This document shows positions 77 through 39,914 of a stretch of DNA of 64,000 nt, piece by piece. This stretch comes from Sphyrna mokarran. Its lineage: Eukaryota. The position numbers and the translations under genes were made by a program. The first letter of the stretch is position 1, and every line of letters begins with the position of its first letter. The DNA lies in NCBI GenBank assembly GCA_024679065.1, contig JAGIQG010000009.1:109244001-109308000 (forward strand), in the 5' to 3' direction. A model generated the notes under the pieces. It saw only the letters and a list, made by a program, of their open reading frames with translations. It ran no database searches and was not told the DNA's origin.

Positions 77-1611
77 ATCTGTGAAAGATGCAGGCGTAAG
101 TCACCATTTGAGATGATCTTTTTTCAGATAATCGATTAAACCAAATTAAGGGACAAAATAAGAGTTAAAGGGATATTGCATCAAAGAGACGTCACGAGAG
201 AATGATAAACGACATTGCCAGAAACTTTAACAAGGCCAGGAATGGGAACTTAACCTGACTACGTGGTATTCAGGAGAATGGCAGAAGGAGAAGTTGTTGT
301 TTGTGGCAGTATTGCTCTAGAAATTAGCGCTATTAGTAATAGAAAAGGATAATATACTGAGAGATCAAAGAATCGATCTGGCTGAAATAAAGGAGCAGCA
401 GGAACACTGTGTGTAAGCTACAAACAGCTGAATAGTGCAAAGGAGATAATGGACTAAATCTACAGACACATTGCGGAAAAATATCGGAATGATGATAACG
501 GAAGACTTCAAATATAGCTTCTGATCCTAGGATGGTTAGGGCACAGGCTGAGGGTGTTCGATCCATTATCTATGCTGCTCCTTTGCAAACTCTATCTGGA
601 TTGAATCTCCTCCCACCCCACCACCAGCCACTCTCCCCTCCTCCCGGCCATTCATTCCAAACACTGGTCCATAACATTACACTCTGGCATCACCTAAACG
701 CTTCCGAAATGTTGTGAGGATTCTCACCTCATCCACACCCCTTCAGGCAGTGAGTTCCTGATTCCCACCACCCTTTGACAAAGGGTCATCTGGACTCAAA
801 ACATCAGCTCTTTTTTCTCCTTACGGTTCCTGCTGAGGGTTTTCAGCATTTTCTCTTTTGGTCCTACCATTCTCTACCATCCTTACCTTAAATCTATGCT
901 CCCTATTGACCTCTCTATTAAAAGGAAAGATTTCTTCTGAGCCACCCTATCCATGTCCCTTATAATCTTGTGTATCCCAGTCAGGTCCCCCCCTCAGCCT
1001 CTCTGCTCCAAGGATAGCCAGCCTCTTCATAGCTGAAACCCCCTCCAGCTCAGGCAGCATCCTGGTGAATCTCCTTCTGCACCCTCTCCAGTACAATCAC
1101 ATCCTTCCTATAGAACTGCACACAGTTCTCCAGCTGTGGCTTCAGGAGTGTTTTGTACAGCTCCATTTTAACCTCTCTGCTCCTTTATTCCATGTCTCGG
1201 CTAATAAAAGGGACGGGAATACTTGGGAGATGACTGATGCAGATTCCATTTACACAGAGGCTTTGAGACATCCGCAGGCGCTGTACAAATGCAGATATTT
1301 GCTGTTTTTTTCCCCCTCCCCCCGCCTTTGGACTCGGATGTCTTTGGACTGGGTTAAATCTCACCCAGAAACCCTATCTGGATGGACGGTGTGGTGGAAG
1401 TGTAAATACAGACTGGAGTGTGTCATAAAAGACCAGTTCGGATCAGTACCACTTTTAATGCGCTTTATTTAGCGAGATTCGACCAAAACGCAGGAAAGGG
1501 CTGGCAGGGGAGCGACGGGCCGAATGGCCGTGACTAAAGCCGACATTTACATAAAATAACAATACAACAAAAAGCAAGGATGCAACTACCCCGCAGGAAA
1601 CATAACATGGA

Positions 1612-1690
1612 GGAAAGATTGAAACCATTTTCTGTCTAAATAGCTACCGTGTTTCCGGCTCCGGGGCGGATGTTTCAAAGTGAAAGTAAC
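1612..1690 (+). promoter_or_regulatory. Candidate promoter of gene A: ETS-like TTCCGG, GC box GGGGCGG, IRF/ISRE-like AAAGTGAAAGT (1677-1687)
   Basis: Motifs clustered in a CpG-containing unique patch ~130 bp upstream of a consensus donor CAG|GTAAGT. Confidence 0.55.
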
Positions 1691-1744
1691 AAAGATTAAG
1701 GTTGGGTTTTTTTTCCCCCTGTTTTGTCCGGCCTGTTTCTTCTC

Positions 1745-1809
1745 CGTTCTCCAGCTCAAACAAACCGGCAGAGAGACAGAGGGAAGAGAGGTGTTTGATG
1801 TAGCAGCAG
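1745..1809 (+). other. Candidate non-coding exon 1 of gene A (5' end approximate)
   Basis: Consensus donor GCAG|GTAAGT at 1809/1810; the ATG exon at 11039 begins with an acceptor and so needs an upstream exon. Confidence 0.5.
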
Positions 1810-2315
1810 GTAAGTGAATGAATGAGAGTGTTATCCTGGACAGTAAAAATTGGTTACATTAGGAAATTACAGCGTTCCCGGGTGGGGACCGCAGCCTCCG
1901 GGTTCAGGGTGGGATTCTCCATTTCAATCATTATGAAAAACAAGAGATCAGAGGTTCAGAAATATCTCTGGAACACTAACCACCAGATCCCTATCCAGCG
2001 CTGAACCTGACACACTCTCGTCTGTATTTACACTTCACACCACACCCTCCATCCAGGCAGGGTTTCTGGGTGAGGTTTAACAGAGGGGTGAGATTCCCTG
2101 ATCCCGAGCCCAAAAGGAGAAACAACGAATATCTGCATTTGCACAGCGCCTGCAGATGTCTCTGTGTAACCCGGTGAGGGGGGGTTGAAGTGCAGCCGCT
2201 GTTGTAGGTCTGTCCGCAACAAACTCCCCGATGAACCGATTATCTGACCTGTTACAGCTCAGGGAATAAAGCTCAAAACTGGGGAAAACACAGTCACACC
2301 CCAAACCCCACACCT

Positions 2316-4418
2316 CAGCACCCAGTATTATAGAGAGAGGGGCCCCAGCACCCAGTATTATAGAGAGAGGGGCCCCAGCACCCAGTATTATAGAGAGAGA
2401 TCCCCAGCACCCAGTATTATAGAGAGAGGGGCCCCAGCACCCAGTATTATAGAGAGAGATCCCCAGCACCCAGTATTATAGAGAGAGGGGCCCCAGCACG
2501 CCATATTATAGAAAGAGGGGCCCCAGCACCCCTATTATAGAGAAGAGGGGCCCCAGCACCCAGTATTTAGAGAAGAGAGAGATCCCCAGCACCCAGTATT
2601 ATAGAGAGAGAGAGAGATCCCCAGCACCCAGTATTATAGAGAGAGAGATCCCCAGCACCCACTATTATAGAGAGAGAGAGATCCCCAGCACCCACTATTA
2701 TAGAGAGAGAGAGATCCCCAGCACCCAGTATTGTAGAGAGAGAGAGAGATCCCCAGCACCCAGTATTATAGAGAGAGAGATCCCCAACACCCAGTATTAT
2801 AGAGAGAGAGGGGCCCCAGCACCCAGTATTATAGAGAGAGAGATCCCCAGCACCCAGTATTATAGAGAGAGAGATCCCCAGCACCCAGTATTATAGAGAG
2901 AGAGATCCCTAGCACCCTGTATTATAGAGAGAGAGAGAGATCCCCAGCACCCAGTATTATAGAGTGAGAGAGAGATCCCCAGCACCCAGTATTATAGAGT
3001 GAGAGAGAGATCCCCAGCACCCAGTATTATAGAGAGAGAGAGATCCCCAGCACCTAGTATTATAGGGAGAGAGAGCGATCCTCAGCACCCAGTATTATAG
3101 AGAGAGAGATCCCCAACACCCAGTATTATAGAGAGAGAGGGGCCCCAGCACCCAGTATTATAGAGAGAGAGATCTCCAGCACCCAGTATTATATATAGAG
3201 AGAGAGATCCCCAGTACCCAGTATTATAGAGAAAGAGAGAGAGAGATCCCCAGCACCCAGTATTATAGAGAGAGAGAGAGATCCCCAGCACCCAGTATTA
3301 TATAGAGAGAGAGAGATCCCCAGCACCCAGTATTATATAGAGAGAGATCCCCAGCACCCAGTATTATAGAGAGAGAGATCCCTAGCACCATATTATAGAG
3401 AGAGAGAGAGATCCCCAGCACCCAGTATTATAGAGAGAGAGATCCCAGCACCCAGTATTATAGAGAGAGAGAGAGATCCCCAGCACCCAGTATTATAGAG
3501 AGAGAGAGAAATCCAGCACCCACTATTATAGAGAGAGAGAGATCCCCAGCACCGTATTGTAGAGAGAGAGAGAGATCCCAGCACCCAGTATTATAGAGAG
3601 AGAGATCCCCAACACCCAGATTATAGAGAGAGAGGGCCCCAGCACCAGTATTATAGAGAGAGAGAGAGAGATCCCCAGCACCCAGTATTATAGAGAGAGA
3701 GATCCCCAGCACCCAGTATTATAGAGAGAGAGATCCCCAGCACCCAGTATTATAGAGAGAGAATCCCTAGCACCCTGTATTATAGAGAGAGAGAGAGATC
3801 CCAGCACCCAGTATTATAGAGTGAGAGAGAGATCCCCAGCACCCAGTATTATAGAGTGAGAGAGAGATCCCCAGCACCCAGTATTATAGAGAGAGAGAGA
3901 TCCCCAGCACCTAGTATTATAGGGAGAGAGAGCGATCCTCAGCACCCAGTATTATAGAGAGAGAGTCCCCAACACCCAGTATATAGAGAGAGAGGGGCCC
4001 CAGCACCCAGTATTATAGAGAGAGAGATCTCCAGCACCCAGTATTATATATAGAGAGAGAGATCCCCAGTACCCAGTATTATAGAGAAAGAGAGAGAGAG
4101 ATCCCCAGCACCCAGTATTATAGAGAGAGAGAGAGATCCCCAGCACCCAGTATTATATAGAGAGAGAGAGATCCCCAGCACCCAGTATTATATAGAGAGA
4201 GATCCCCAGCACCCAGTATTATAGAGAGAGAGAGAGATCCCCAGCACCCAGTATTATAGAGAGAGAGATCCCCAGCACCCAGTATTATAGAGAGAGAGAG
4301 ATCCCCAGCACCCAGTATTATAGAGAGAGAGAGATCCCCAGCACCTAGTATTATAGGGAGAGAGAGCGATCCCCAGCACCCAGTATTATAGAGAGAGAGA
4401 TCCCCAGTACCCAGTATT
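2316..4418. repeat. Minisatellite, unit CCCCAGCACCCAGTATTATA(GA)nT, ~30-38 bp with variable GA tract
   Basis: Tandem copies directly visible. Confidence 0.97.
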
Positions 4419-5335
4419 AGAACAAAGAACAAAACAGCACGGGAAACAGGCCCTTCGGCCCAAGAGCCTGCGCCGCCATCCTGATGTTCCCACCTCTACC
4501 TGCGATCCCTGTCCATATTTATAGGTCTATGGATTAAAAACCAAATTTGAGACAATTTAGGGAGAATTTGTTTTGCCAATTAGCCTAAGAGCACATCTTT
4601 GGGATGTGGGAGGAAACCGGAGCACCCGGAGAAAACCCATGCAAGTACGGGGAGAATGCGCAAACTCCCACAGACACAGGCCCAAATCCATGTATCTGCA
4701 CACCACAGCGATAGTCACTGAGCTGTCGTGTTGCCCATCAAATGGTCCAGGTCAAGCGTACACTAACGACGTGAAGCACTAGAATACTCTCGAAAAAAAA
4801 TCCAAGAGCAGCCCTCTCACAACCCCTCACGTGTATGCCCCTCTTTAGACAACAAGGTGGACCAAAGCACCTGTGAGATAAAAACAAGTACATCAATATC
4901 ATGTCTATTTACACACTTCCCAGGACTCCCAAGACTCATAATCGCTATTTTAAATCAGTTTTCTATACCCCTCCATTCCCATTCTGTTCACGTGCCCATC
5001 TAAGTATTTCTTAAATAACTCCAGAGTACCTGCCTCCACCACTTTACTTGGCAGCGCATTCCATACCCCCACCACCCTCTGTGTGAAAAACTCCCTCTAG
5101 CATCCAAATTATACCTTACCCCCCTCACCCTAAGCCCGTGACCCCTCGTGCTATTTGAGTCCATCTTAGGAAAAAGCTTAACCCTGTTTACTCTATCTAT
5201 ACCCCTCATAATCTTGTACACCTCTATCAGATCTCCTCTAAGTCTACGTCTTTCTAAGGAAAACAGTTCCAATTTGCCTAACCTCACTTCGTAACTCAGA
5301 CCTTCCATAACTCAGACTCTGTCCAGAGTCTCCAC
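4419..5335 (-). mobile_element. CR1-like LINE, 3' part of a minus-strand copy (host of a nested insertion)
   Basis: Reverse complement of ~5632-6575; ORF 5000-5308(-) LERRRLRGDLIEVYKIMRG; (TTTGTTC)n tail at 4419. Confidence 0.92.
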
Positions 5336-6575
5336 GATAAATGTGAGGTGATGCATTTCGGGAGAAAGAATGTAGGGGGGAGGTATATGATAAAGGATAG
5401 ACCTATTAAGAGTATAGAAACGCAGAGGGACCTGGGGGTGCAGGTGAACAAGTCTCTGAAGGTGGCAGAGCAAGTGGAGAAGGTTGTGAAGAAAGCATAT
5501 AGTATGCTAGCCTTTATAGGAAGGGGTATAGAGTACAAGAGCTGGCCTTTAATGTTGCAGTTGTATAAAACGTTGGTTAGACCTCATTTGGAATACTGCG
5601 TCCAGTTCTGGTCGCCTTGCTACCGGAAGGATGTGGAGACTCTGGAGAGAGTGCAGAGGAGGTTTACCAGGATGCTGCCTGGTATGGATGGTCTGAGTTA
5701 CGAGGAGAGATTAGGCAAATTGGGGCTGTTTTCCTCAGAAAGACGTAGACTTAGAGGAGATCTAATAGAGGTGTACAAGATTATGAGGGGCATAGATAGA
5801 GTAAACAGGGTTAAGCTTTTTCCTAGGATGGACTCAAATAGCACGAGGGGTCACGGGCTTAGGGTGAGGGGGGTAAGGTATAATTTGGATGCTAGAGGGA
5901 GGTTTTTCACACAGAGGGTGGTGGGGGTATGGAATGCGCTGCCAAGTAAAGTGGTGGAGGCAGGTACTCTGGAGTTATTTAAGAAATACTTAGATGGGCA
6001 CATGAACAGAATGGGAATGGAGGGGTATAGAAAACTGATTTAAAATAGGGATCATGAGCCTTGGGAGTCCCTGGGAAGTGTGTAAATAGATGATGATATT
6101 GATGTACTTGTTTTTATCTCACAGGTGCTTTGGTCCACCTTGTTGTCTAACGAGGGGCATACACGCGATGGGTCGTGAGAGGGCTGCTCTTGGATTTTTT
6201 TTCGAGAGTATCCTAGTGCTTCACGTCGTTAGTGTACGCTTGACCTGGACCATTTGATGGGCAACACGACAGCTCAGTGACTATCGCTGTGGTGTGCCAA
6301 TACATGGATTTGGGCCTGTGTCTGTGGGAGTTTGCGCATTCTCCCCGTGCTTGCGTGGGTTTTCTCCGGGTGCTCCCACATTCCTCCCACATCCCAAAGA
6401 TGTGCTAATTGGCAAAACAAATTCTCCCTAAATTGTCTCAAATTTGGTTTTTTAATCCATAGATCTATAAACATGGACAGGGATCACGGGTAGAGGTGGG
6501 AACATCGGGGTGGCGGCGTGAGCTCGTTGGGCCGAAGGGCCTGTTTCCCGTGCTGTTTTGTTCTTTGTTCTTTGT
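5336..6575 (+). mobile_element. CR1-like LINE, 5'-truncated, intact ORF2 C-terminus (5348-6043) plus 3' UTR and tail
   Basis: Motifs LYKTLVRPHLEYCVQFWSP, LERVQRRFTRM, RLRGDLIEVYKIM, FTQRVVGVWNALP; tail gggccgaagggcctgttt..(tttgttc)n. Confidence 0.95.
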
Positions 6576-6695
6576 CCTTCCGGTAGCAAGGCGACAAGAA
6601 CTGGATGCAGTATTCCAAATGAGGTCTAACCAATGTTTTATACAACTGCAACATTAAAGGCCAGTCTTGTACTCTATACCCCTTCCTATAAAGGC
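6576..6695 (-). mobile_element. CR1-like LINE, remaining 5' piece of the minus-strand host copy
   Basis: Reverse complement of ~5510-5630; contiguous in LINE coordinates with the piece ending at 5335. Confidence 0.88.
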
Positions 6696-7360
6696 CAGTA
6701 TTTACATGGGGTCCCTGGGGAGTGTGTCAGTTTTTACAGGGGGTGCCTGGGGAGTGTGTCAGTATTTACAGGGGGTCCCTGGGGAGTGTGTCAGTATTTA
6801 CAGCGGGTCCCTGGGGAGTGTGTCAGTATTTACAGGGGATCCCTGGGGAGTGTGTCAGTATTTACAGGGAGTCCGCGGGGAGTGTCAGTATTTACAGGGG
6901 GTGCCTGGGGAGTGTGTCAGTATTTACAGGGGGTCCCTGGGGAGTGTGTCAGTATTTACAGGGGGTCCCTGGGGAGTGTGTCAGTATTTACAGGGGGTCC
7001 CCAGGGAGTGTGTCAGTATTTACAGTGGGGGCCCTGGGGAGAGTGTGTCAGTATTTACAGGGGTGTCCGGGGAGTGTGTCAGTATTTACAGGGGGTGCCT
7101 GGGGAGTGTTAGTATTTACAGGGGGTCCCTGGGGAGTGTGTCAGTATTTACAGGGGGTCCCTGGGGAGTGTGTCAGTATTTACAGGGGGTGCCTGGGGAG
7201 TGTGTCAGTATTTACAGGGAGTCCCCGGGGAGTGTGTCAGTATTTACAGCGGGTTCCCTGGGGAGTGTGTCAGTATTTAGAGGGGGTGCCTGGGGAGTGT
7301 GTCAGTATTTACAGGGGGTCCCTGGGGAGTGTATCAGTATTTACAGGAGGGTCCCTGTTT
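6696..7360. repeat. 32-bp minisatellite CAGTATTTACAGGGGGTCCCTGGGGAGTGTGT
   Basis: About 20 tandem copies. Confidence 0.97.
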
Positions 7361-7602
7361 TGAGTACTGACAGGGGGTTAGAATTATTGAATTCTGAGTG
7401 TGGTTGACCCAGGATTTTCTGGGCTGCACATCCATTCGTGTAATCTGATCACAGGGGACACACCCATCCTCACTGCAGAACTTCCTGTTGCTTTAGCTTC
7501 CTCTAATCAGCTCGAAAAAGCCATTGAGAGACTTTGCACTCTTCGAACGCCCGTGACCTTCAGATCGAACATTCCAGCAGGCTAAATATACTGAAATAGA
7601 CA

Positions 7603-7603
<1 letters not shown>

Positions 7604-7646
<43 letters not shown>
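7604..7646. repeat. Compound (TC)n(AC)n microsatellite
   Basis: Directly visible. Confidence 0.95.
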
Positions 7647-7647
<1 letters not shown>

Positions 7648-7999
7648 GTACAAATGTCTGATAAACACTTTGTGGGGGCATGGAGTGTCTGATTAATCTT
7701 GGGCAGATACACACACACACACACCCCACTAGATATGAAAGTCAGAGTAGATTAACAAGCATTCCCAGTACTGCCAAGAGAAGGAAAATTGTTCATATCT
7801 CTGGCAGGCAAACAGATGGAGTTTGAAGTCTTCTATATTTGTATTTAAGTATTGGAAACACGATACAGTTTAAAGTGAGTTTAATTCAGTGCAGTATGGA
7901 AGGGTAAATCTTCTCATGTTAGACGAAGGTGTTTGCATAGGGAGAGGTTTGACTTCAGTTAAAACTGGGCTTTTATTGAGCTTAGAGATTGTTACAAAG

Positions 8000-10940: not shown

Positions 10941-11073
10941 TAAAGGAGCTATATGGAAAGAAGTTGCTCTTGCAATTGTTTCTTTCATGAGCAAAGAAGT
11001 TTAGTGTCAAACCGTAATGCGAGCCTCTTATCCTTCAGGTTTTGCACGTTCAGGCTTTGGGCTTTCACTGAAG

Positions 11074-11143
11074 ATGTCCTGGAAGATGGGGCCCTGGACC
11101 CTGTCTCTGATTCTCCTTCTCACGATCCATTCTGCACTGACAG
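11074..11143 (+). CDS. Butyrophilin-like gene A, coding exon 1: signal peptide MSWKMGPWTLSLILLLTIHSALT (exon starts 11039)
   Basis: Acceptor tccttcAG at 11038, ATG 11074, hydrophobic core, donor ACAG|GTGAGT phase 1, in frame with the IgV exon. Confidence 0.88.
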
Positions 11144-24084: not shown

Positions 24085-24355
24085 AGGGACCCGGGCTCAA
24101 TTCCGACCTCAGGTCACTGTCTGTGCGGAGTCTGCACATTCTCCCCATGTCTGCATGGGCTTCCTCCGGGGGCTTCGGTTTCCTCCTGGAGTCCAAAAGA
24201 TGTACGGATTGACTGTACTAAATTGGCCATTAGTGTTGGGGGACTAGGAAGTTAATTATGTGGGGTTGTGCAGATTGGCTCTGGGTGGGATTGTGGCCAG
24301 TGCAGGCTCAATGGGCTGAATGGCCTCCTTCTGCAGTATAGGGATTCTATGATTC
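24085..24355 (+). mobile_element. V-SINE (HE1-like), 5'-truncated
   Basis: B box, V-SINE body and CR1-like tail. Confidence 0.78.
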
Positions 24356-24776
24356 TCTCGGTTTGCACACTAGCTTCCACTGGAGTGTTGCACAACGTCC
24401 TGACTGTACCTGCACAGAGAATCCTCAACTGTCACACGTATAAATTCAGAACTTACCAATAGGAAAATGTCATTGACCCAACAAGCCTATTTCCCCCTCC
24501 CCCCCCGGCAAGATTCAAGTCACCTTCAGTCACATTCTCAATCTGGGACATCCAAAATCCTCCCTCAGTGTGTGTGGAAGGAAAGTGGCCATTGCCATAT
24601 TCCGGAATATTCTGCCCTGTGAGGTTGAACACAATAAATGAACGCGTGTCATGGTATTTATGGAGCAGTGTTGTGGTGGATTGAGGAGTGATGGGCTGAA
24701 GGGCCTCTCTCTCTCTGGACTGTAACGTTCTGCGAAATGCTTTGAAGATTCTTCATCATTGTGTCTTGTGTTTCAG

Positions 24777-24803
24777 CTGCTGAGCGAGTCATCACTGCCG
24801 CAG
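24777..24803 (+). CDS. Gene A microexon 6 (27 nt) AAERVITAA
   Basis: gtgtttcAG / CAG|GTGAGA. Confidence 0.85.
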
Positions 24804-24894
24804 GTGAGAGAAACACTTTCCCATCGCTTTACCAGGCCTCACATTGAGGAAATTGTCTCCCAGCCACTTCCTTCATGGTTTAGATTAACCCAAA

Positions 24895-25535
24895 TGGGAG
24901 GACCATCCAGTGGGTGGGAAATGAGACTGGGCGGACCATCCAGTGTTTGGGATATGAGACTGGGAGGACCATCCAGTGGGTGAGATATGAGACTGGGAGG
25001 ACCATCCAGCGGGTGAGATATGAAACTGGGAGGACCATCCAGTGGGTGAGATATGAGACTGGGAGGACCATCCAGTGGGTGGGATATGAGACTGGGAGGA
25101 CCATCCAGTGGGTGAGATATGAAACTGGGAGGACCATCCAGCGGGTGGGATTGAGACTGGGGAGGACCATCCAGTGGGTGGGATTGAGACTGGGAGGACC
25201 ATCCAGTGGGTGGGATTGAGACGGGGAGGACTATCCAGTGGGTGGGATATGAGACTGGGAGGACCATCCAATGGGTGGGATATGAGACTGGGAGGACCAA
25301 CCAGTGGGTGGATATGAGACTGGGAGGACCATCCAGTGGGTGGGATATGAGACTGGGAGGACCATCCAGTGGGTGGGATATGAGACTGGGAGGACCATCC
25401 AGTGGGTGGGATATGAGACTGGGAGGACCATCCAGTGGGTGGGATATGAGACTGGGAGGACCATCCAGTGGGTGGAATATGGAACTGGGAGGACCATCCA
25501 GTGGGTGGGATATGGAACTGGGAGGACCAACCAGT
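24895..25535. repeat. 33-bp minisatellite GAGACTGGGAGGACCATCCAGTGGGTGGGATAT
   Basis: About 19 copies. Confidence 0.96.
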
Positions 25536-25821
25536 TAAACATCATGAACCTGAGGGCACAGATTCAAAATGGTGGGTGAAAGAAGGAATAATGATGTAAA
25601 GAAAACATTTTAACCCAAAGTGTGGTTAGAGTCTGGAAGGGAAATCCCTGAGAAGGTGGAGGATGAGCTTCGATCGAGGTATTTACAGGGGAATTGGATC
25701 GTTAATTGAAACGAGAGGATGTGTGTGGTGACCGGGATAAGGCAGGGTTGTGGGACTAGATAGAATAGTCTTTCAGAGGCGTCGTCATGGTAACCGTGAA
25801 ATTGTCGTCAGAAGGGATTTA

Positions 25822-26125
25822 GCTGGGGAGGCAGTGGTATGGCGGTGTTATAATCTAGCAACCCAGTGTTCGAGTCCCACAACTTTGAATTCAGTAAATA
25901 TCTGAAGTTTGATGATCATAAAACCAGTGCCGATTGTCATAAAACCCATCTGGGTCCCTTTAGGGAAGGAAATCTGCCGTCCTTACCCTGTCTGGCCTAC
26001 ATGTGACTCCAGAGCCACAGCAAAGTGGTTGACTTTTAAATACCTTCTGAAATGGCCGAGGAAGGTCGGTTGAAGGGAAGGTAGGGATGGGCAACAAATG
26101 ATGGCCTTGCCAGCGATGCCCACAC
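25822..26125 (+). mobile_element. tRNA-like SINE (second family; further copies ~33800-34110, 57520-57870, 58210-58820, 61030-61215)
   Basis: B box gttcgagtcc; shared core tagggaaggaaatctgccgtccttacc..ggcctacatgtgactccag; tail gggatgggcaa..gccagcgatgcccac. Confidence 0.7.
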
Positions 26126-26474
26126 TCTATCTACACATTCATCACCACCACCTGCACCGAGAAGGTCTACACATTCTTCAGCCCCGGGGGGGATTATTTT
26201 CCTTCAATTATATTGAACTCATTAATTGAATCATTCCTTAATCTTCGAAAGACAATCAACTACAAAGCAGACAGGATTGACCCCTGTTAGTCTTGGTTAC
26301 ATCGGGTGGTACCCACACCAAGGCAAGGAAGGCAACGCACACATGGATTGGATGGGCCAAATGGCCTCCTCTTGTGCTGTACCGTGCCGATTCTCTTCCC
26401 CCCATCTCCTGTGTTTGTCATCTCATTCCCAGTGATTTTTGGGCCTGACCTATGATCTCCTTTTGTGTTGCCAG

Positions 26475-26989
26475 TTCCGGTGACCTTCGACCCCGAGAGC
26501 GCCAACCCCTACCTGGCAGTCTCGAAGGACCGGCTGACTGTGACGTTCAACGACGAATGGCAGAACCTTCCGGCCAACCCCAAGAGGTTCAACTCCCGCC
26601 TCTTCGTGATCGCCAACGAGGGGTACGAGGCGGGCAGCCACTACTGGGAGGTGCTGGTTGACAGCAAGCCAGACTGGGACCTGGGAGTGGTTAAAGGGAC
26701 CATCTCCAGGGACGAGTGGATCACCCTGAGCCCGGAGAACGGCTTCTGGACCATCGGGAAGCGGGGCAACAACTACGAGGTTAACTCCAACTCCCCCGAA
26801 CCCATCTCGTGCCCGGTGACCACCCAGAAAATCGGCATCTACCTGAATTACGAGGAGGGCATGGTTGGCTTCTACAATGTCGATGACATGATGCTAATCT
26901 ACAGCTTCACCACCACCTTCTCCGAGAAAGTCTACCCATTCTTCAGCCCCTGGGGATCGAAAGAGGAAATGAAAATCTCCCCCCTCTAA
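26475..26989 (+). CDS. Gene A terminal B30.2 (PRY-SPRY) exon
   Basis: VTFDPESANPYLAVS..NPKRF..HYWEV..WDLGV..PENGFW..KIGIYLNYEEG..VYPFFSP; stop at 26989; total CDS 1491 nt. Confidence 0.97.
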
Positions 26990-28720: not shown

Positions 28721-29119
28721 TCCTTAGACTTCAGAGCTGCTGAGATTTTCCAGCATTTTCTGATAGTGAAACAAATTTATGGGCTTGTTTTTGTTGCCCT
28801 GCTCTCCCCCACCGTCCCCTCAGGGAATGGGCTACTCACTCTTCACTTGCCTATTTCCCTCCGGAAGATATTTCCACTCGTGGGGTGAGGGGGAGTGGGG
28901 GAGAGAAATAAGAACAAAACAAGAGTTCATAAACGTAAGTTCTTCATAAATCCTGTCCCATTTTGTTTATCCAGTGGGATCGTTCAGATGCTTTGATGAG
29001 GGATGGAAAATTCCAGGTTTAAAAAAAAGGCGGCTCTCGTGCTCAGGAATCCGCTGCTCCAGGCCTTACAACCTCAGGTGGCTGGCGGAGAGGGAGGCTG
29101 TGGACGCGGTGGTGGAGGG

Positions 29120-29995
29120 GGGGACCAGGATCGGGGGAGACAGGATGGGGGAGGGGGGAGACCAGGATCGGGGCTGGGAGAGCCAGGACTGGGGTGGGGG
29201 GGGGGAGGGGGGGGGAGGGGGGAGACCAGGATCGGGGGGGGGGGAGGGGGGGGAGGGGGGAGACCAGGATCGGGGGGGGGGGGAGGGGGAGGGGGTGACC
29301 AGGATCGGGGGGGGGGTGACTAGGATGGGGGGTGACTAGGATCGGGGTGACGGTCAGGATCGGTGGGAGGGGGGTGACCAGGATCGGGGGGGGGGGGAGG
29401 GGGGTGACCAGGATCGGGGGGTGGGGGAGGGGGATTGGGGGGTGACCAGGATCGGGAGGGGTGACCAGGATCGGGGGTGGGGGAGGGGGGAGAGGGGTTG
29501 ACTAGGATCGGTGGGTGACCAGGATCTGGGGGGAGGGGGGTGACCAGGTGCGGGGGGGGGGGGGGTGACTAGGATCGGGGGGTGACCAGGATCGGGGGGG
29601 GGGGGGGGGGGTTAACAGGATCGGGGGTGGGGGAGGGGGCGAGGGGTGACCAGGATCGGGGGGGGGAGGGGGGTGACCAGGATCGGGGGAGGGGGGGAAG
29701 GGGGGTGACCAGGACGGGGGGGGGTGACGCAGGATTCAGGGGGGGGGGAGGGGTGTGACCATGATCGGGCGGGGGGAGGGGGGTGACCTAGGGATCGGGG
29801 GGGGGATGGGTGACCAGGATCAGGGGCGGGGGGAGGGGGGTGACCATGATCGGGGGGGGGGGAGGGGGGTGACCAGGATCGGGGGGGGGGAGGGGGGGTG
29901 ACCAGGATCCGGGGGAGGAGGGGTGAGATGGGGGGAGGCGTGGTGACCAGGATCGGGGGGTGGGGGAGGGGGGGTGACCAGGATTCGGGGGGGGG
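29120..29995. repeat. G-rich minisatellite GGGTGACCAGGATCG(G)n
   Basis: Many copies with variable G runs. Confidence 0.93.
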
Positions 29996-30059
29996 GGGCT
30001 GGCTGGATGGCGGGGGGAGGGCTGGCTGAGCGGGCGGGGGGGGGGCGGAGGTGGGGGTG

Positions 30060-30950
30060 TCTGTCCGGCGACAGTCATCGGAGACCTTCGGACGGTCGCG
30101 CTCGGCCCCGAAAGCGCAGGCGGGCTCGAGGCTCAGACGGAATTTCACGGTGGCCCGAAGCTGAGATCCCCCCTCCCCGGCGCCTGCCCCACTGCGCGAG
30201 CTATCTCACGGAAATGTCCTCCGTGCCTTTTCCCAGCGCGCGGAGGCGTTTCCTGTACATCACCTTCCACTGCCGCGTCCTCGCCTGTCGCCCGGATACA
30301 CCTCGGAGGGCCTTGTTACCTCCGGGTGGCGGAGGTCCCCGATGGAGGTTCCCCCCAAGGAAGGATCTCCCTCGGGGACCCGGGGTGGAGGCTGCAGCGG
30401 TGCCCGTAGGTTTTCCCGGTTCCCGGGACTGCCCTTTCTGCGGCCTCCTGGAGTCCGTGGATTATGTTTCACGTTCTAGATCGCACGCCCTTTTTGTTTT
30501 TCTGAAACCCGTTTTACTGACGTGTTGTTTGCCCTTCAGTCCCACGCTCCTGATTCCCGGACACCCGGTGCGGAGAGGGGAGGGGAGGGATGCCGACCTC
30601 TTCGTGAACCTGCTCCTGGGCCTGGCGAGATGCCGGGCAGCGGGCGATCGACAGGGTCGTCCATCCCGACCGTCTGCTCCTCTACCGCGGCTACATTCGC
30701 GGCAAAGTGTCCCTGGATAGGGAGCGTGTGGGGTCTGCGGGCACCGTTGATGCCTTCCGTGCCCGCTGGGCACACAAAGGCTGGCGTGCGTTATAAATCC
30801 CGACAATCACATTTTGATTTAACGTGTCTTTTAAGTTTCCTTTGCGATTTTTCTTTTTGTTCGGCCTGTTCCCTTTCCTTTTGGGGAGCTGCCCCTTTTA
30901 CTTTGTCCTAATTTAATTTAATTTGTCTATTTGGTTTGACCTCAAAAGAA
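30060..30950 (+). mobile_element. Tx1/L1-clade LINE 3' fragment (zinc-knuckle region)
   Basis: CPFCGLLESVDYV..FSPTLLIPGHPVRRGEGRDADLFVNLLLGLA; CpG-rich body with T-rich 3' UTR. Confidence 0.72.
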
Positions 30951-31709: not shown

Positions 31710-31920
31710 AACCCTACAGTGCAGAAGGAGGCCATTCAGCCCATCAAATCCATGCTGACAACAATTCCACCCAGGTCCTATCCCTGAAACATTTTTACCC
31801 TGCTAATCCCCCTGAGACTGGGGTCAATTTAGCACAGCCAGTGAACCTAACCTGTACATCTTTAGACTGTGGGAGGAAACTGGAGCACTCGGAGGAAGCT
31901 CACACAGATATGGGGACCAG
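31710..31920 (-). mobile_element. V-SINE fragment
   Basis: Reverse tail ctacagtgcagaaggaggccattc and body ctgtgggaggaaactggagcac. Confidence 0.75.
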
Positions 31921-33147
31921 TTGTAACAAATTGAGGGATCACAATATCACGTTTGGAGTGCTCACTCAGAATTAGAGTGGGGAAAATAAATCTTTGAGAC
32001 CAATGTTGAGAAACTGCGAATAGACTTTCTTGGGTCTGTAAAAACGTCCACTTTTGACGCCAGCACTTTCTAGGCAGCTTCAGAGAAAGTTACGTTTGAG
32101 GATTAGAAAATTCTGTCCCACGTACCATTAAGACTTAGCGAGGCACTCGAATTTCAGCAGAGCATCCATCATTTTCAAAGGGTTAGTCTACGGGTGGAAG
32201 TTGAGGGTAATGATATGGAGAGAGTAGTGGGGAAGAGATTAAAATTGCAGCAATGGAAATTTGAATTTCAGGGAAGATCAGAAAGGGAAGAGGGAGACAG
32301 TGACCCAAGCCGGGAATTGAACCCGGGTCCCTGGCACTGTGAGGCATCAGTGCCAACCACTGTGCCACCCCATTACATTGTGTTATCAATGTAACACCAG
32401 AATCCACAGGCTGATCTTTATTTAACATGAGGGTCACCTCAGGCGAGAAGGCAGCTGGTACAGGAATTGAACCCGTGCTGTTGGCATCACTCTGCATCAT
32501 CTGAAGAATCTCTTTCTTCCAAAACTGTCTGTTTGCTCATTATAAAGCTTGACATTCAGGCGAAGACTCAGTTTATTTTCTGATTGGCCATGGGCAGGTA
32601 GGTTGCCATGACAATGCATATTTTGAGTGGCCAATGGTGGGAGAGTTTTGCTGGTGGGGGGGGGGGGGGGGGGGGGGAGTCGGAGATGAGAGTGAAATTG
32701 AGGCCATGAGAAAATCAGCCATGATTTCATTGAATAGCGGAGGAGGCTCGAGAGACCAGATCGCTGACTCCTGCTCCTCGTTCTTATATTTATAAGAGAG
32801 ATTATGTAATGAAAAACCTTCAAGGATTATCTGTGCCTTCACTATCGTCTGACATCGCCCTACCTGCATTGTCGAGTAGCCTCTGAGTGGGATCATTCTG
32901 TGTCCTTGTCCTCCTCCAGCCCTCATTCCCATCCCCGTCACCCATCGACAGCAGGGGTTAGCTGTGTTTGCCCCTGTATTCCCCTCCATAAGAAAGAGAG
33001 CTTGAATTTCTATAGCACCTGTCACCATCTCAGCACTTCCCTCTTCACACCTCACAGCCTGGGAAGTATTGAATTGCCATAATGTGGAAAATAGAGAGGC
33101 ATATTTACACACAACAAGATCCCACAAACATGATGTGATTATGATCC

Positions 33148-33482
33148 GGGCAGCATGGTGGCACAGTGGTTAGCACTGCTGCTTCACAGCTCTAGGGACC
33201 TGGTTCGATTCCCGGCTCGGGTCACTGTCTATATGGAGTTTGCACATCCTCCTCGTGTCTGCATGGGTTTCCTCCAGGTGCTCCGGTTTCCTCCCACAGT
33301 CCAAAGATGTGCGGGTTAGGTTGATAGGCCATGCTAAAATTGCCCCTTAGCGTGCTGAGACATGTAGGTTAGAAGGATTAGTGGGAAAATATGTAGGGAT
33401 ATGGGAGTAGGGCGTGGATAGGATTGTGGTCAGTGCAGACTTGATGGGCCGAATGGTCTCTTTCTGCACTGTAGGGTTTCTA
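33148..33482 (+). mobile_element. Full-length V-SINE (HE1-like)
   Basis: Head gggcagcatggtggcacagtggttagcactg, B box ggttcgattccc, V-SINE body, CR1-like tail. Confidence 0.88.
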
Positions 33483-35574
33483 GGGTGATCAGATCATCTG
33501 TTTCCATGAAGCTGAATGACAGATAAATATTGACCATGATAACTCACTCCCCTTCTCTCAATCCAATTGTGGATGTATAAACTTTTCACCTAATCCCGGG
33601 AGGGAGATGGGGGTCTGGCTTCAATATCTCAGTGAAAATACAGCCATTCTGGCAGTGCTGCACTCTGGCAGTACTACACTGGGTGTCAGCTTGGATCTGT
33701 GAGTGTAATTGATCGAAGTGGAGCTCTAACCCATGATCTGACCTGGAGATTGCAGGATAAGGGGTATCCAGAATAGCCAGGGTTCATTCTGAGTGAGTAA
33801 TGGTATTGTTACTGGACTAGAATTCCAGAGATCCATAGTTCAAATCCCCTCCCAATTTTATTTCAATAAAAATCTGGAATTTGATGACCATGAAATCATT
33901 GTCGATTGTCAGAAAAACCCATCCAGCTCCCTTTAAGGAAGGAAACCTGCCGTTCTTACCTGATCTGATCTACGTGTGACTCCAGATCCACAGCAAAGCG
34001 ATTGACTCTTAAATACCCTGTGAAATAACCAAGTGAGTTACTCCATTCAAGGACAATTAAGGGTGGGGAATAAACACTGGCCAGTCATTAACACCCACAT
34101 TTCATGAATGATTTTTTTAAAAAATGTGGGATTCTTTTAAAAAAAAGTACTGCCCAATATAAGATAATAGATGAACTGAGATGAGAGAGAGTTATGAACT
34201 GGACGGAGACCTGTGTTGAGGCCAGTGTGGAGTTAGCTCATCACTTGGACTATATTTATGTAGATAGTTTTGTGCTTTCAATATAAAGTTGCTATAGCCC
34301 AAATGACCATAGAATAGTTATTAGTAACATTAGCCAATATAAGAATTGAACCCAGACTGTTAGTTTCATTCTGCATCACAAACCAGCCACCTGAGCAAAA
34401 TCAGCACCCAGCTATCAATGAATGCTTAATGTTCAACCATACAAACCTCAGAACCACTTTATCAAACCATAGAATATTAGCAAGCTAAGCATTGAGACAG
34501 GGTTAAATGACTCACCCACCAACGAAGGAAGAACCTGATTGACTGGAATATCCTGAGGATATGAAAGGCCACAAAGAGGAAGGTGCGATAATCTTTCTCT
34601 AAATTTACTGTGACTGATCTTAAAGGAAAAAAAATCAATCTCCTGTTATCAAGGAACTGCTGCGTATTTTGTAAAGAAGAAATCTGAACTTGTGAGTAAG
34701 TTTTGAGTAAATGTGAAGGAGCTGGGTAAAGGAAGATAATGATATGTTTTAACGATCCAGATATTTTGGGATCTTGAGACAGGCTCGCAATCGACTGAAA
34801 GGCAAGTTATGAATCGTAGCTGCATTTACAATGAATCATCGCATTGGCTAAAGCCTGCGTACTGGCACAATTTCATCTTCAAATAAGGAGCATAATAAAT
34901 AGGATCATGAGTAGGTCGCTTGGCCCTTTCAGCCCATTCTCTATGCAAAGACAGCTCCTAGATGATTGTACTGCACAGCCAGGATGTTCGCTGTGGGCAG
35001 GGCGAGAGAACAGGCCCTCTTGGATCACCTCAGTAAAGCTGCCCATTTCACTGAGCACACTGCAGGAAAGCCAGAGGCTCCAGAGTATTCCTGGTTCCGC
35101 AGCTTGGAATTAATGGTTGTGTACAATTAGCTTTGTAGCTGCTCCCATCAACATACTGAAAGGTGCCTCTGTGAGGGAGGAGAAAGGTGGCAAATGGGGT
35201 TCAATTTGGAAAATAGTGAAGTAAAGCATTCAGGGAGGGTGAATAAAGCCAGGGAATCCTCAGCAGATTTGCAATATTAATAAGCAGTAGTGGAGAACTG
35301 GTGGCCTGGAGGGGGCAGGGGTGGGGGGGGGGGGGGGAGGCATTTGCCACATTTGGGTTCCAAATGCAGTTCACAAGACAATCTGTTGACGGTTACCCAA
35401 GTGCAGGGTTGTTACGTTCCACTGATTGCTGTCTGTGGTGTTATTCCATAGGGAATTACTGAAGTGATACATTGATAAAGGTCAAGAGAAGTGAGGTGTG
35501 TGCTGTTTGCACACATTGACTGTGAGGGCTGTTCCCTGTGTTCAAAGTGGCAATATTTATCTTTTAACTACTTT

Positions 35575-36112
35575 GTGAGATCTTCATGAGACCACATTTG
35601 GAATATTGTGCGCAGTTCTGGTCACCTCACTACCAGAAGGATGTGGAAGCATTGGAGAGGGAGTGCAGAGGAGGTTTACTAGGATGCTGCCTGGTTTGCA
35701 AGGTAGGTGTTATGAGGAAAGGTTGAGGGAGCTGGGGCTTTTCTCTTTACAGTCGAGGAAGAGGGGCGACTTAGTAGAGGTTTATAAGATGTTGAGAGGG
35801 ATTGATAGAGTGGACATGCAGAGACTATCTCCTCGGGTGGGTATAGCTGTTACTACAGGGCATAACTTTAAGGTTCATGGTGGGAGATATAGGAGGGATA
35901 TCTGAGGTAGATTCTTTACTCAGAGAGTGGTTGGGGTGTGGAATACACTGCCTGCTGTGATAGTGGAGTCGGACACTTTAGGAACTTTCAAGCAGTTATT
36001 GGATAAGTATATGGAGCACTCCAGAATGATAGGGAGTGGGATAGCTTAATCTTAGTTTCAGACAAAGTTTGGCACAATATTGAGGGCCAAAGGGCCTGTA
36101 ATGTGTTGTACT
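35575..36112 (+). mobile_element. CR1-like LINE 3' fragment
   Basis: VQRRFTRMLPGL..YEERLRELGLFSL..RGDLVEVYKMLRG; tail gggccaaagggcctgt. Confidence 0.88.
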
Positions 36113-37499
36113 CTTATTTTGAAGTTGCTGATAGTTCTATTAAAATATAAATGATTAAACATTTTCTATAACTCGTTATGAAATATTCAGCATGTACTAA
36201 ATCTATTTAATCTTATTCATGGTGTCATGGTCAGTGAACAAGCCGCATTTCAATCTTGTAGCCCCCTTAGACGGCAGAGGACCACTCCTGTGGCCCAGGT
36301 TGGTGATCACTGGTGGTGAACAGGAATATGATTTTCATGTCCATGGGTCTCTGAAGGTAGTTGACAGGTCGATAAAGTGGTAATGAAGGTGTAACATTTC
36401 AAACGAGCACAAAGACATAGCTTGGTTAGTGGTGAGAAAGGCCCTTCAGATCCTTCCTGTGTGTTTGGAGTCTTATCCCTCTGCAGTTGGGGTTAGAGAC
36501 TGTTGCCCTATCTCCTTCTGCAATGTGTCTTTGCAAAACATTTCTGCAAATAGATGTGCTTTTTTTAAAATCGCGGTTAATCCTGAGCAGTTCTGTAACA
36601 CAGTGCCTTGTGCTGTATATTCAGTTCCCAGGGACACGTCAAAGATGGCAGGAGGAGAATGGGATACCATGTTTTTGCTCTTGGAATGGTATGTGATCAC
36701 ACAGTGAGGATTCACAGAGATTTACGAGGATGTTCCAGGACTTGTAGCTGTGAGAAGCGATTGGATTGGGTCTGGTTATTTGAAACAGGATGGTTGAGAA
36801 GATGTTGAATTGAGCTGGGACTTTCCAGACCTTCCTGCTGGTGGGATTTTCCACTCCTATCGAAGATGACTTTCCGAACAACAGTGGTTCCCCAGTGACA
36901 TGGCCAGAGAGCAATACAAATGGCTACTAACTTCGGTGGGACTGGAAGATCCACCAATGGCAAGCTGCTTCTGCCACTGGAAACCCACTGCAGGAACTGG
37001 GGCTGGAAAATCCTGGCCATAAGATCTTGGGCTGGATCCTCTGGCCTCAGCTGCAGCTAGGATTCTCCAGTGCCGCTGCTGTGAATGGAGACATCGCTGA
37101 GTGCCAAATTCTCCATTCTCATCTGCAGCAGCAGCGAGGTGAATGAGACCAGAGATTTCATTAGCAAGTGAAGGAGATTTCATGCAAAATTTTACAGTCA
37201 AAGGATTTTCCAGACTCATCTAGAGTGGGAGCTGTTGTGTGTGAGGACGGAAAATTTAGCATTCCATTCTATTGAGCCTAAATCATCACTGGCAAATCCC
37301 AACTGTAGGCAAGGATGGAAAATTTTGGTCAGAGAGAGTGGAATTTACCAGCAAGATTTTCCACTCCCGCCGAGGTCTTCTAATTGGCTCGCCGTAGTTT
37401 ACAACCCCTCCGTGATAGGGGCCACGAAATATTTAGGGCAGGATTTTCTGGCCACATTCACCCTGAGGTCAATGAAGCTTTGATGGACCATGTCCCACT

Positions 37500-38380
37500 T
37501 GCCTTTAATGTTGCAGTTGTATAAAACGTTGGTTAGACCTCATTTGGAATACTGCGTCCAGTCCTGGTCGCCCTACTACCGGAAGGACATGGAGACTCTG
37601 GAGAGAGTGCAGAGGAGGTTTACCAGGATGCTGCCTGGTATGGAAGGTCTGAGTTACGAGGAGAGGTTAGGCAAATTGGAAGTGTTTTCTTTAGAAAGAC
37701 GTAGACTTAGAGGAGATCTAATAGAGGTGCACAAGATTATGAGGGGTATAGATAGAGTAAAGTGGTGGAGGCAGGCACTCTGGAGTTATTTAAGAAATAC
37801 TTAGATGGGCACATGAACAGAATGGAAATGGAGGGGTATAGAAAACTGATTTAAAATAGGGATCATGAGCCTTGGGAGTCCCTGGGAAGTGTGTAAATAG
37901 ATGATGACATTGATGTACTTGTTTTTATCTACAGATGCTTTGGTCCACCTTGTTGTCTAACAAGGGGCATACACGCGAGGGGTCGTGAGAGGGCTGCTCT
38001 TGGATTTTTTGTTCTAGAGTATCCTAGTGCTTCATGTTGTTAGTGTACGCTTGACCTGTACCATTTGATGGGCAACACGACAGCTCAGTGACTATCGCTG
38101 TGCTGTGCAGATGCATGGATTTGGGCCTGTGTCTGTGGGAGTTTGCACATTCTCCCCATGCTTGCGTGGGTTTTCTCCGGGTGCTCCAGTTTCCTCCCAC
38201 ATCTCAAAGATGTGCTCTTAGGCTAATTGGCAAAACAAATTCTCCCTAAATTGTCTCAAATTTGGTTTTTAATCCATAGATCTATAATCACAGACAGGGA
38301 TTGCGGGTAGAGGTGGGAACATCGGGGTGGCGGCGCAGGCTCGTGGGGCCGAAGGGCCTGGTTTTGTTCTTTGTTCTTTG
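37500..38380 (+). mobile_element. Third copy of the young CR1-like LINE seen at 5336-6575, with internal deletion
   Basis: Near-identical ORF and 3' UTR; ~150-bp deletion between two AGTAAA microhomologies at ~37760. Confidence 0.93.
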
Positions 38381-38846
38381 CTATAATTCCCGAGGTGGGG
38401 GGGCGGGGAGGTGAGGGAATTCCTCCCTCAGTTGAGAAGGGTTGGGGGGTGCAGGGAATGGGACGAGTGGAGTCTGGAACTCTGCCTCAAGGGGTAATAG
38501 AGTGAGGAAAAACCCTCTTTTCATTAATAAAAACAACTACACTCTAGGTAACTGAAACAATGCCAACCCTACAGGGACCTGGATGCAGAAAGTGGGGATA
38601 AAACTTGGTTAGCACCGACACGATGGGCCGAACGGCTTCCCTCCACGCTGAGAAATGTTGGTGGAGAGTTTAAATTTGAATTGTGTTGGGGAGGTGGAGG
38701 AACAGAGACAATCTTTTAGATAATGTATTATTGCAGAGAGGGGGCTTTGAGGGTAGTTGAGGTTTGAAAAAAAAGTCCTGTTAAGTTCCGGTAAGTTTTT
38801 TGAATTTGTGACCTTTGTAATCTTCAATCGTAAGAGAAGGCGGAGG

Positions 38847-38960
38847 TGACATCAAATTGAAAGTGAAAGGCCGTCTGATTTTCCCTCCCTGCTTCTCCGG
38901 AGGCCGGAGATGGAGCTGATCCATTTCTAATTCCAGTCGGAGTTTCTTATTCATTTCAGC
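38847..38960 (+). promoter_or_regulatory. Candidate promoter of gene B: CRE-like TGACATCA (38847-38854), IRF/ISRE GAAAGTGAAAG (38859-38869), AGTTTCTTATTC (38941-38952)
   Basis: Motif cluster in a CpG-containing unique patch 1.4 kb upstream of the ATG exon. Confidence 0.6.
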
Positions 38961-39084
38961 TCCTGTCAATTTCAGTGTAAACTGAGTGAGTGCAGAGAGA
39001 GAGAGAGAGAGCGGCTGCAATCCAGACTGAGAGAGAAAAGGATTCACATCCCACAGACTGGGCAAAACAGGCCTCCGCAGCAAG
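38960..39084 (+). other. Candidate non-coding exon 1 of gene B (5' end approximate)
   Basis: Donor GCAGCAAG|GTTAGG resembling gene A's GCAGCAG|GTAAGT; GA-rich interior as in gene A's candidate exon 1. Confidence 0.42.
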
Positions 39085-39914
39085 GTTAGGGAGGGGCTGG
39101 ATCGCTGCGGTGAAAGTTCAGAGCTCTTAAGTCTTTTATTGAAGGTTTTATTGAAGGTTCCTCCACCTCCCCAACACAATTCAAATTTAAACTCTCCTGA
39201 TGTTCACCAACATTTCTCAGCGTGGAGGGAAGCCGTTCGGCCCATCGTGTCGGTGCTAACCAAGTTTTATCCCCACTTTCTGCATCCAGGTCCCTGTAGG
39301 GTTGGCATTGTTTCAGTTACCTAGAGTGTAGTTGTTTTTATTAATGAAAAGAGGGTTTTTCCTCACTCTATTACCCCTTGAGGCAGAGTTCCAGACTCCA
39401 GTTGCTTTTTATTTTGGTCGGCACAACATCGAAGGCCGAAGGGCCTGTTCTGTGCTGTATTGTTCTATGTTCTATATGTTTTGCCAAGGGATTCTCTCAT
39501 ATCCCACTCTTCCCGAGAGGAGAATCTGGGGAGAAGGTCTGGGGGGTAGTAGTGAGGGGGTAGGAAGGACCTGATTGGGATGTAGGGTAAGTAGGAGCTT
39601 CTTCCCTGCTGCTGTCAGGCTTTTGCATGGACCTGCCTCTCGTTTCCTACACTACACTCTGCACTCTCTCCTTTCCTTCTCTATACACTGTTTTCTTTGT
39701 GTACCCCCCCTCCAAAAGATACTTTTCACTGTATCCCAACACATGTAATAATTATAAATCAAGTCAATTTGAGCATAGATTCAAGGAGCTGGAGATTTAG
39801 GGGGGATTTGAGGAAAAATTTGTTCACCCAGAGGGTGCTGGAATCCAGAACTCACTGCCTGAAAGTGTGGGTGAGATGGAAACCCTCGTTTAAGAAGCAT
39901 TTAGGTGTGTGTTT

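Follow-up and report, generated by a model that had tools for sequence, protein, structure and literature searches.

Inverted repeats around the likely first exons of two shark butyrophilin genes: probable scars of local copy-and-paste repair

Two butyrophilin genes lie on the forward strand of the window (the whole stretch of 64,000 nucleotides analysed here), and at each of them an IRF-type motif followed by a splice donor is bracketed by inverted arms, as the arm alignments and donor sites confirm. The question raised by this arrangement is whether the arms constitute an invertible expression switch, as proposed in the initial annotation, or are the residue of some other process. Both genes contain V-set, butyrophilin IgC (PF22705) and PRY/SPRY exons in the butyrophilin (BTN/BTNL) order IgV, IgC, transmembrane, B30.2. 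Gene 1 comprises a predicted signal-peptide exon (coding part, 11074–11143) and a body at 13966–26986 (IgV ca. 13966–14321, IgC ca. 16444–16728, transmembrane ca. 19550–19680, B30.2 26480–26986). Gene 2 extends over 40328–62727 (signal-peptide exon to 40409, IgV ca. 40579–40938, IgC 43698–43985, transmembrane ca. 46400–46530, B30.2 62215–62727). A third butyrophilin gene, overlooked in the initial annotation, is located directly upstream of the window, and its promoter candidate carries no inverted repeat.

The cassette at gene 1 (IR1, 1250–2169) consists of a single-copy, old left arm on the forward strand (1250–1425, core 1265–1425) and a right arm on the reverse strand (2008–2169), which would lie within intron 1. 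Segments 1265–1425 and 2008–2162 were aligned with blastn at 75% identity (E 4e-25) across a spacer of 582 nt; with a gap, the arms reach outwards to ca. 1250 and ca. 2169 (169 alignment columns), and their longest perfect run is 17 nt. No LINE abuts the cassette in its neighbourhood. Within the spacer, the motif (1676–1687, forward strand, AAAGTGAAAG at 1677) is followed by the donor CAG/GTAAGT (GT at 1810). Together they point to a non-coding exon 1 of gene 1 at 1690–1809 (forward strand, start approximate), which probably lies inside the spacer and would be joined from 1809 to the leader exon near 11070.

The cassette at gene 2 (IR2, 38468–39400) is far better preserved. Its left arm (38468–38703, forward strand) consists largely of the decayed 3′ end of an old LINE and is likely the parental copy, and its right arm (39157–39400, reverse strand), situated in intron 1 of gene 2, is likely the inserted inverted copy; when a LINE profile was used to identify the parental arm, both arms scored alike. 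The arms match in 236 of 244 columns, with one 8-nt indel and a perfect run of 195 nt, and enclose a spacer of 453 nt. The spacer contains the second motif (38859–38870, forward strand, AAAGTGAAAG at 38860) and the donor AAG/GTTAGG (GT at 39085). Exon 1 of gene 2 (38851–39084, forward strand, 5′ end approximate) is further supported by a contig, probably RNA-derived, because its match to the window (38851–39085) ends at the donor; read contigs were compared over 38230–40010, an interval that ends short of ca. 40319, to which 39084 is predicted to be joined. The proposed position of promoter and first exon within the spacer is thus backed by probable RNA at gene 2 and suggested by motif and donor at gene 1.

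An assembly artefact was ruled out, since IR2 is contained in read-derived contigs and the arms of IR1 are too diverged. The short-read DNA contig of the IR2 spacer covers 38674–39186 and breaks one k-mer past both inner arm ends, and the depth of the arm contig is 1.6 times that of the spacer contig (20.4 versus 12.8), in a run that may be the source of the assembly itself. The read-derived match from another species is confined to 38728–38885. Of the runs X3–X21, which have small word shares and were kept out of the evidence, X3 matched in repeats only.

The outer end of the IR2 right arm is fused to the 5′-truncated 3′ tail of a young LINE (39401–39476, forward strand, 76 nt), which we take to be CR1-like. 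The junction is flush, the arm stopping at 39400 and the tail beginning at 39401, and both arms and tail are almost free of mutations. A 34-mer of this tail occurs in 31,744 exact copies in the genome. Because this amounts to only about one per 87 kb, the flush junction is unlikely to have arisen by chance (by our estimate about 1 in several thousand for this family). A 12-nt tandem micro-duplication (39134–39157, forward strand) marks the inner junction of this arm, with 3 nt shared with the start of the arm. Inspection by eye of the sequence flanking the whole IR2/LINE insertion revealed no target-site duplication; CR1-like elements often lack one.

We consider it probable that both inverted repeats are independent scars of local copy-and-paste repair and not a switch. 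IR2 would then likely be a single recent templated insertion: a LINE would have inserted into intron 1 of gene 2, 72 nt past the donor; where the element is truncated at 5′, the growing strand may have gone on to copy ca. 240 nt in reverse from just upstream of the promoter; and closure of the break would have left the right arm and the LINE tail. The near-identity of the arms would be due to the youth of this event. IR1 probably goes back to an earlier event of this general class; its junctions have decayed beyond reading. Of each pair, the pre-mRNA would contain the right arm alone, so no hairpin RNA is predicted. Read in this way, IR2 illustrates cleanly how the insertion of a retrotransposon can leave a first exon enclosed by a near-perfect inverted repeat.

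Other young LINE insertions were surveyed for the same outcome (70 loci, of which 13 were unscorable and 2 lay at assembly gaps). Apart from IR2, unique DNA had been copied in inverted form at none of the 55 scorable 5′ junctions. A second, score-ranked set of 26 contained no long inverted copy and one 12-nt foldback. Such copies were therefore rejected as a routine product of young LINE junctions. One further young tail (L303) has the same geometry, with a 167-nt inverted copy (97%) at its 5′ junction; alternatively, the element itself could have supplied this piece in inverted form (95.7% to the best copy elsewhere). Direct exact micro-duplications of at least 12 nt numbered 9 at junctions versus 5, which is no clear enrichment, with gap artefacts in both counts. 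The empty junction survey, the ambiguity of L303, the lack of a LINE at IR1, the similar geometry of the two cassettes and the nominal excess of inverted pairs at butyrophilin promoters (2 of 6 candidates, see below) all count against the repair account.

The butyrophilin paralogues were searched for the same architecture. The sequence AAAGTGAAAG, whose sites at 1677 and 38860 we take to be IRF/ISRE-type, occurs twice in the window, compared with 5 occurrences in 600 kb of random DNA. The layout of motif followed by donor recurs in 3 of 4 other butyrophilin promoter candidates. None of these 4 has an inverted repeat (scores of 26–46 versus 174 and 460 at the two cassettes), so a family-wide promoter architecture finds no support. 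Searches of 20–30 kb at 5 further paralogues yielded no convincing promoter. The 4 candidates without an inverted repeat include that of a close paralogue, g0, whose leader exon aligns with that of gene 1; the promoters of g0, gene 1 and gene 2 did not align with one another and gave neither spacer orientation nor parental arm. The geometry of the two cassettes is alike (arms at ca. −400 and at +300 to +500 around the motif); the cassettes have no sequence in common (z 0.5), and their arms differ in age, 75% identity as opposed to 236 of 244 columns, so that the claim of unrelated arm pairs of different age stands. Among the matches listed in a whole-genome search, no second locus was found for the arms of either cassette, and the idea that some dispersed element had them as its terminal repeats was rejected. 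The window gave no match in Rfam, and a literature search of incomplete coverage on shark butyrophilins and vertebrate invertible promoters returned nothing on this locus.

The window also holds a third, larger inverted pair (4419–6571), which, like the LINE tail on the right arm of IR2, had escaped the initial annotation. It consists of two head-to-head LINE 3′ fragments (4419–5309 and 5683–6571, 94%) that resemble copies elsewhere (95%) no less than they resemble each other, and it brackets no promoter.

Background frequencies were determined in 600 kb of random DNA, in which 53 close inverted pairs were found, 6 of them with non-repeat arms; pairs similar to the two cassettes occur at ca. 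1 per 120 kb. Random positions were bracketed by a non-repeat pair in 0.96% of cases (0.40% with a spacer of at most 1 kb) and by any pair in 10.6%. Inverted pairs were not in excess of direct ones at random loci, save for zero-spacer palindromes (11 versus 1). As promoter controls, 70 YY1-motif loci were fetched and 66 retained after 3 overlapping loci and 1 presumed, unchecked duplicate were dropped; 57 of these have non-repeat centres. A non-repeat inverted pair was found at only 1 of the 66 (2 if L167, whose minisatellite arms are found in 1–2 other loci, is counted), and a general promoter feature was rejected. An ISRE-specific feature was likewise rejected on finding none at 60 ISRE-pattern loci, a weak control in which most loci are probably not promoters, the patterns being little or no more frequent than their reversed forms (132 versus 88; 231 versus 943). 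Against the YY1-motif loci, 2 of 6 butyrophilin candidates gives a Fisher p of 0.02 (computed with 58 controls), and the binomial p is 1e-4 to 4e-3 at background rates of 0.3–1.7%; the excess is nominally significant and post hoc. Roughly 0.2–6 neighbouring pairs of this kind are expected genome-wide. Extrapolation from 5 in 600 kb gives about 20,000 non-repeat inverted pairs in the genome, so that such cassettes will recur in scans.

These frequencies bear on whether active promoters are themselves prone to breaks or LINE insertion, with the segment upstream of the promoter as preferred template and the inverted repeats as by-products without switch function. We regard this as unlikely. The 2 of 6 exceeds the background prediction, and both copied segments end ca. 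150–250 nt upstream of the motif, yet the YY1-motif loci and, as a weaker control, the ISRE-pattern loci show no such tendency. The initial annotation had offered break hotspots repaired by inverted duplication as its own alternative; the repair part fits the IR2 junctions, and the hotspot part finds no support in the same controls. Possibly, in a variant, the LINE reverse transcriptase went on from the tail to copy an upstream antisense transcript. The inserted arm of IR2 has the sense that such an RNA would have and shares its direction with the tail, and template switches of L1 between RNAs are known (PMC11702581, available part); however, no antisense transcript was seen in the contigs, which cannot show strand. 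Far less probable is one ancient inverted repeat, older than the gene duplication and kept by arm-to-arm conversion as a useful switch or structural element. Conversion would erase similarity between paralogues and the cassettes are alike in geometry, but IR2 has fresh-looking junctions linked to a young LINE tail, the 75% identity of the IR1 arms implies that conversion is not maintaining them, and no repeat is present at the closer paralogue g0.

The invertible switch itself is unsupported: IR1 is too decayed, IR2 looks like one young event, similar pairs recur about once per 120 kb of random DNA, and the 4 other butyrophilin candidates lack them. Perfect runs of 17 nt (IR1) and 195 nt (IR2), set against the thresholds in the available part of PMC2583991, do not provide usable recombination arms at both genes. 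Efficient recombination is not expected at IR1 because its arms are too decayed, and its inversion is predicted not to occur. At IR2, ordinary recombination could invert the spacer on rare occasions, so that flipped alleles, probably null ones, may occur at low frequency. That IR2 is a working substrate, of whatever origin, flipping often enough for segregating or somatic off-alleles of gene 2 is very unlikely, and that one LINE insertion created a phase-variation-like cassette with segregating or somatically mosaic on/off alleles is marginally less likely again. Exon 1 of gene 2 does lie entirely within the spacer, and 195 nt of perfect identity 453 nt apart falls among the lengths that can sustain mitotic recombination, which drops 20-fold from 232 to 134 bp and can need less for close repeats; meiotic recombination, however, needs ca. 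300–500 bp (all PMC2583991, available part). In the accessible portion of 10.1101/2021.12.20.472354, repeats of at least 200 bp flank the majority of resolved balanced inversions in humans, but the recurrent ones have repeats mostly of at least 10 kb and rates of 3.4e-6 to 2.7e-4 per generation. No flipped IR2 appeared in the short-read contigs, which collapse the arms and so cannot display one; no recombinase site was recognised in the IR2 arms, and IR1 is unable to participate. If IR2 did flip at useful rates, a vertebrate immune gene would be under reversible control at the level of DNA in a setting other than antigen-receptor rearrangement.

In bacterial phase variation, an invertible promoter facing its gene likewise sits in the spacer between inverted repeats, and is turned at short specific sites by a dedicated recombinase. 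The present arms, by comparison, are long, unrelated between the genes and partly transposon-derived, and no recombinase was noticed among the listed reading frames of the window. The human BTN3A promoter, which contains an ISRE (PMC11257985), resembles the present ones in belonging to an IgV-IgC-transmembrane-B30.2 gene with an IRF-type motif near the start, and the available part of that account does not mention an inverted repeat. Recurrent (toggling) human inversions (10.1101/2021.12.20.472354; PMC3961182, both in part) share a spacer between inverted repeats that homologous recombination can turn. Their repeats, however, measure mostly kilobases to tens of kilobases, compared with 0.24 kb at IR2 and no long perfect run at IR1, and they flip both ways, whereas the locus described here is known in one orientation. 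Closer to the preferred reading of templated repair are the insertions at L1 junctions (PMC11702581; 10.1101/2024.08.27.596794, both in part), in which sequence templated from a nearby segment of less than ca. 250 bp can be joined to a truncated LINE. A local segment is joined directly to a truncated LINE 5′ end at IR2, and not at IR1. The human templates usually lie at most 15 bp from the site (10.1101/2024.08.27.596794, available part), as opposed to an inverted source 453 nt away at IR2, whose element, unlike the human one, is not an L1 and shows by eye no target-site duplication. The mutation class is thus already known, from these junctions and from the 'Inverted Dup' variants of 1000 Genomes phase 3: according to the available text of PMC4617611, human 'inversions' are mostly inverted duplications of less than 1 kb, inserted in reverse within 5 kb of their source, as in both cassettes. 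The human events are typically without a link to retrotransposition, whereas IR2 is fused to a LINE tail, and here, unlike there, each pair happens to enclose a first exon.

The two butyrophilin-like genes each carry V-set, butyrophilin IgC and PRY/SPRY exons, as identified by domain search, together with transmembrane exons; their leader exons are predicted at 11074-11143 (gene 1) and 40328-40409 (gene 2). The duplication that separated them is old, because their domains are only ~33-38% identical. A third butyrophilin gene (g0) is located 5-20 kb ahead of the window start, and the IgV search gave 11 matches among those listed on this contig. A CpG-rich stretch between the two genes (29950-30900, observed/expected ~0.9, no Pfam or Rfam match) possibly marks the start of another gene or a retroelement 5' end.

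Self-comparison of the window placed inverted arms around the IRF-type motif and splice donor of each gene: IR1 at 1265-1425 and 2008-2162 (75%, E 4e-25), and IR2 at 38468-38703 and 39157-39400 (236/244 columns, one 8-nt indel). This bears out the architecture described in the initial annotation, IR2 being present in read-derived contigs as well, and also the statement that the two arm pairs have no sequence in common, as the cassettes (arms plus spacer) did not align with each other. When the whole 2.77-Gb genome was searched (match counts being lower bounds), the only match for each arm was its own locus. Within the window, the sequence AAAGTGAAAG is confined to the two spacers, with one copy in each, versus five copies in 600 kb of random DNA. 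The names ISRE and YY1 used here for motifs, and CR1-like for the LINE, are those that we take to apply. A third, larger inverted pair (4419-6571) consists of LINE ends and has no promoter inside; no Pfam family was found for its LINE reading frame (5282-6037). LINE 3' fragments facing each other in this way, with at most a few hundred bases between them, recur in the genome (window 4419-6571, L014, L028, L063, L271, L302 and L328). Between IR1 and the LINE pair, the start of the putative intron 1 of gene 1 is filled by a minisatellite of 2.1 kb whose AG core varies (2313-4419).

Read-derived contigs were compared with the window over 38230-40010. In X2, a probable RNA run, a 1117-nt contig agrees with 38851-39085 at every base and then, for its other 882 nt, diverges at the GT donor (39085), where the DNA run continues; the one extra G at that point is compatible with splicing to an acceptor before 40319. 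The contig begins 8 nt ahead of the motif, a contig end not being a transcript start. Sequence from a second species covers 38728-38885, with nine differences and one gap in 159 nt. For gene 1, the motif, the consensus donor and the like layout at g0 and at two further paralogue candidates point to a putative exon 1. ISREs in butyrophilin promoters are described for human BTN3A (PMC11257985).

The initial annotation had proposed that both promoters and first exons form invertible expression switches, and this found no support. The longest perfect arm-to-arm run is 17 nt in IR1 and 195 nt in IR2. Mitotic recombination is reviewed as dropping 20-fold from 232 to 134 bp of identity, and human meiosis as needing ~300-500 bp; for close repeats, exceptions below 50 bp are noted (PMC2583991). 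Measured against these lengths, IR2 is borderline as a substrate for rare inversion and IR1 no practical one; a paired, regulated switch of both genes is therefore improbable. A rare inverted IR2 allele is possible; with promoter and exon 1 then facing away from the leader exon, gene 2 would likely be silenced. The short-read DNA run X1, possibly the source of the assembly itself, gave a spacer contig (38674-39186) and an arm contig at 1.6x its depth, as expected if the two IR2 arms collapse into one node; these contigs are uninformative on flipping, because a crossover within the 195-nt perfect stretch leaves them unchanged.

Most likely, IR1 and IR2 are two independent repair scars, one of them tied to a young LINE. 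Background was taken from sixty random 10-kb stretches (arms >=80 nt, spacers up to 1.5 kb), which contained 53 inverted pairs, six with mostly non-repeat arms as judged against the fetched sample; inverted and direct pairs were about equally frequent. Some inverted pair brackets 10.6% of random positions, a non-repeat pair 0.96%, and a non-repeat pair with a spacer up to 1 kb 0.40%. The pattern did not extend to promoters at large: the YY1-motif pattern (185 matches versus 2 for the reversed pattern) had a non-repeat inverted pair at 1/66 loci (L200:916-2635; 129 nt, 75%, spacer ~1.5 kb) and any pair at 9/66, and ISRE-pattern loci, a weak control, had a non-repeat pair at 0/60. Nor did it extend to four further butyrophilin promoter candidates, which scored 26-46 versus 174 and 460 at the IR1 and IR2 genes. 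Against repair scars count the similar geometry of both cassettes and their presence at two of six butyrophilin promoter candidates, which is nominally significant (Fisher p 0.02; binomial 1e-4 to 4e-3). The gene pair was, however, chosen post hoc, and about 0.2-6 adjacent pairs are expected given an assumed 20,000 genes.

Repeats were also seen near related loci. Another butyrophilin paralogue has its ISRE-bearing promoter candidate situated where a 353-nt direct duplication ends (L071:3758-4917, 97.7%). A near-perfect inverted pair (L040:8747-9384, arms ~255 nt and mostly low-copy, spacer ~130 nt) lies ~10.5 kb upstream of the g0 IgV exon, apart from the g0 promoter candidate. Between 45 and 100 kb upstream of the window lies a duplicated segment (L034:1827-5571 and L037:5022-8759) with two inverted pairs per copy (438 nt at 96-97%, 123 nt at 82-84%); it adjoins minus-strand B30.2 exons that have no Ig exons close by. 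Elsewhere, 8-9 clustered repeats of triple ISRE-type motifs (G000:C446:6.39-6.82 Mb and G000:C668:9.83-10.14 Mb) probably mark tandem families of interferon-inducible genes.

The start of the IR2 right arm falls within a tandem duplication of 12 nt (39134-39157), which has three letters in common with the arm, and its end is at 39400; flush with it, from 39401, runs a 76-nt LINE-family 3' tail identical to many other copies (31,744 exact genomic occurrences of a 34-mer of the tail). A chance origin of this flush junction is unlikely, and the arms are as young as the tail. In the simplest reading, a single event would have inserted the LINE into intron 1 and joined to its truncated 5' end a segment that was copied in reverse from a local template and became the right arm. 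Most of the arm sequence derives from an older, decayed LINE end (profile E 3e-5), and the LINE profile did not show which arm is parental. Events of this type are rare, as none of 55 other scorable young-LINE junctions carried an inverted copy of unique DNA; L303, which shares the geometry but has arms derived from a LINE (identity 97% with the local copy versus 95.7% with the best copy elsewhere), is ambiguous as a second example. Short direct duplications at LINE junctions were not clearly above control. No LINE was found at the IR1 ends, and a putative repair origin of IR1 is suggested by its class. In four of 27 score-ranked tail copies (L007, L008, L009 and L022), as in that of the window (39401-39476), truncation falls at a near-identical position 76 nt from the 3' end. 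This may be a preferred reverse-transcription stop; ranking by score enriches for such copies, and the unbiased junction set has none cut at this position.

No account of this locus was found in the portion of the literature covered by the search. Both repeats appear to belong to known kinds, namely 'Inverted Dup' variants and templated LINE-junction insertions. The bacterial invertible promoter is like the cassettes in layout only. 'Inverted Dup' variants are given as 54% of sequenced human inversions, and their sizes, as there presented, match both cassettes (PMC4617611). The LINE junction of IR2 is like the templated insertions outlined at L1 sites (PMC11702581; 10.1101/2024.08.27.596794), its source being more distant than is usual there.
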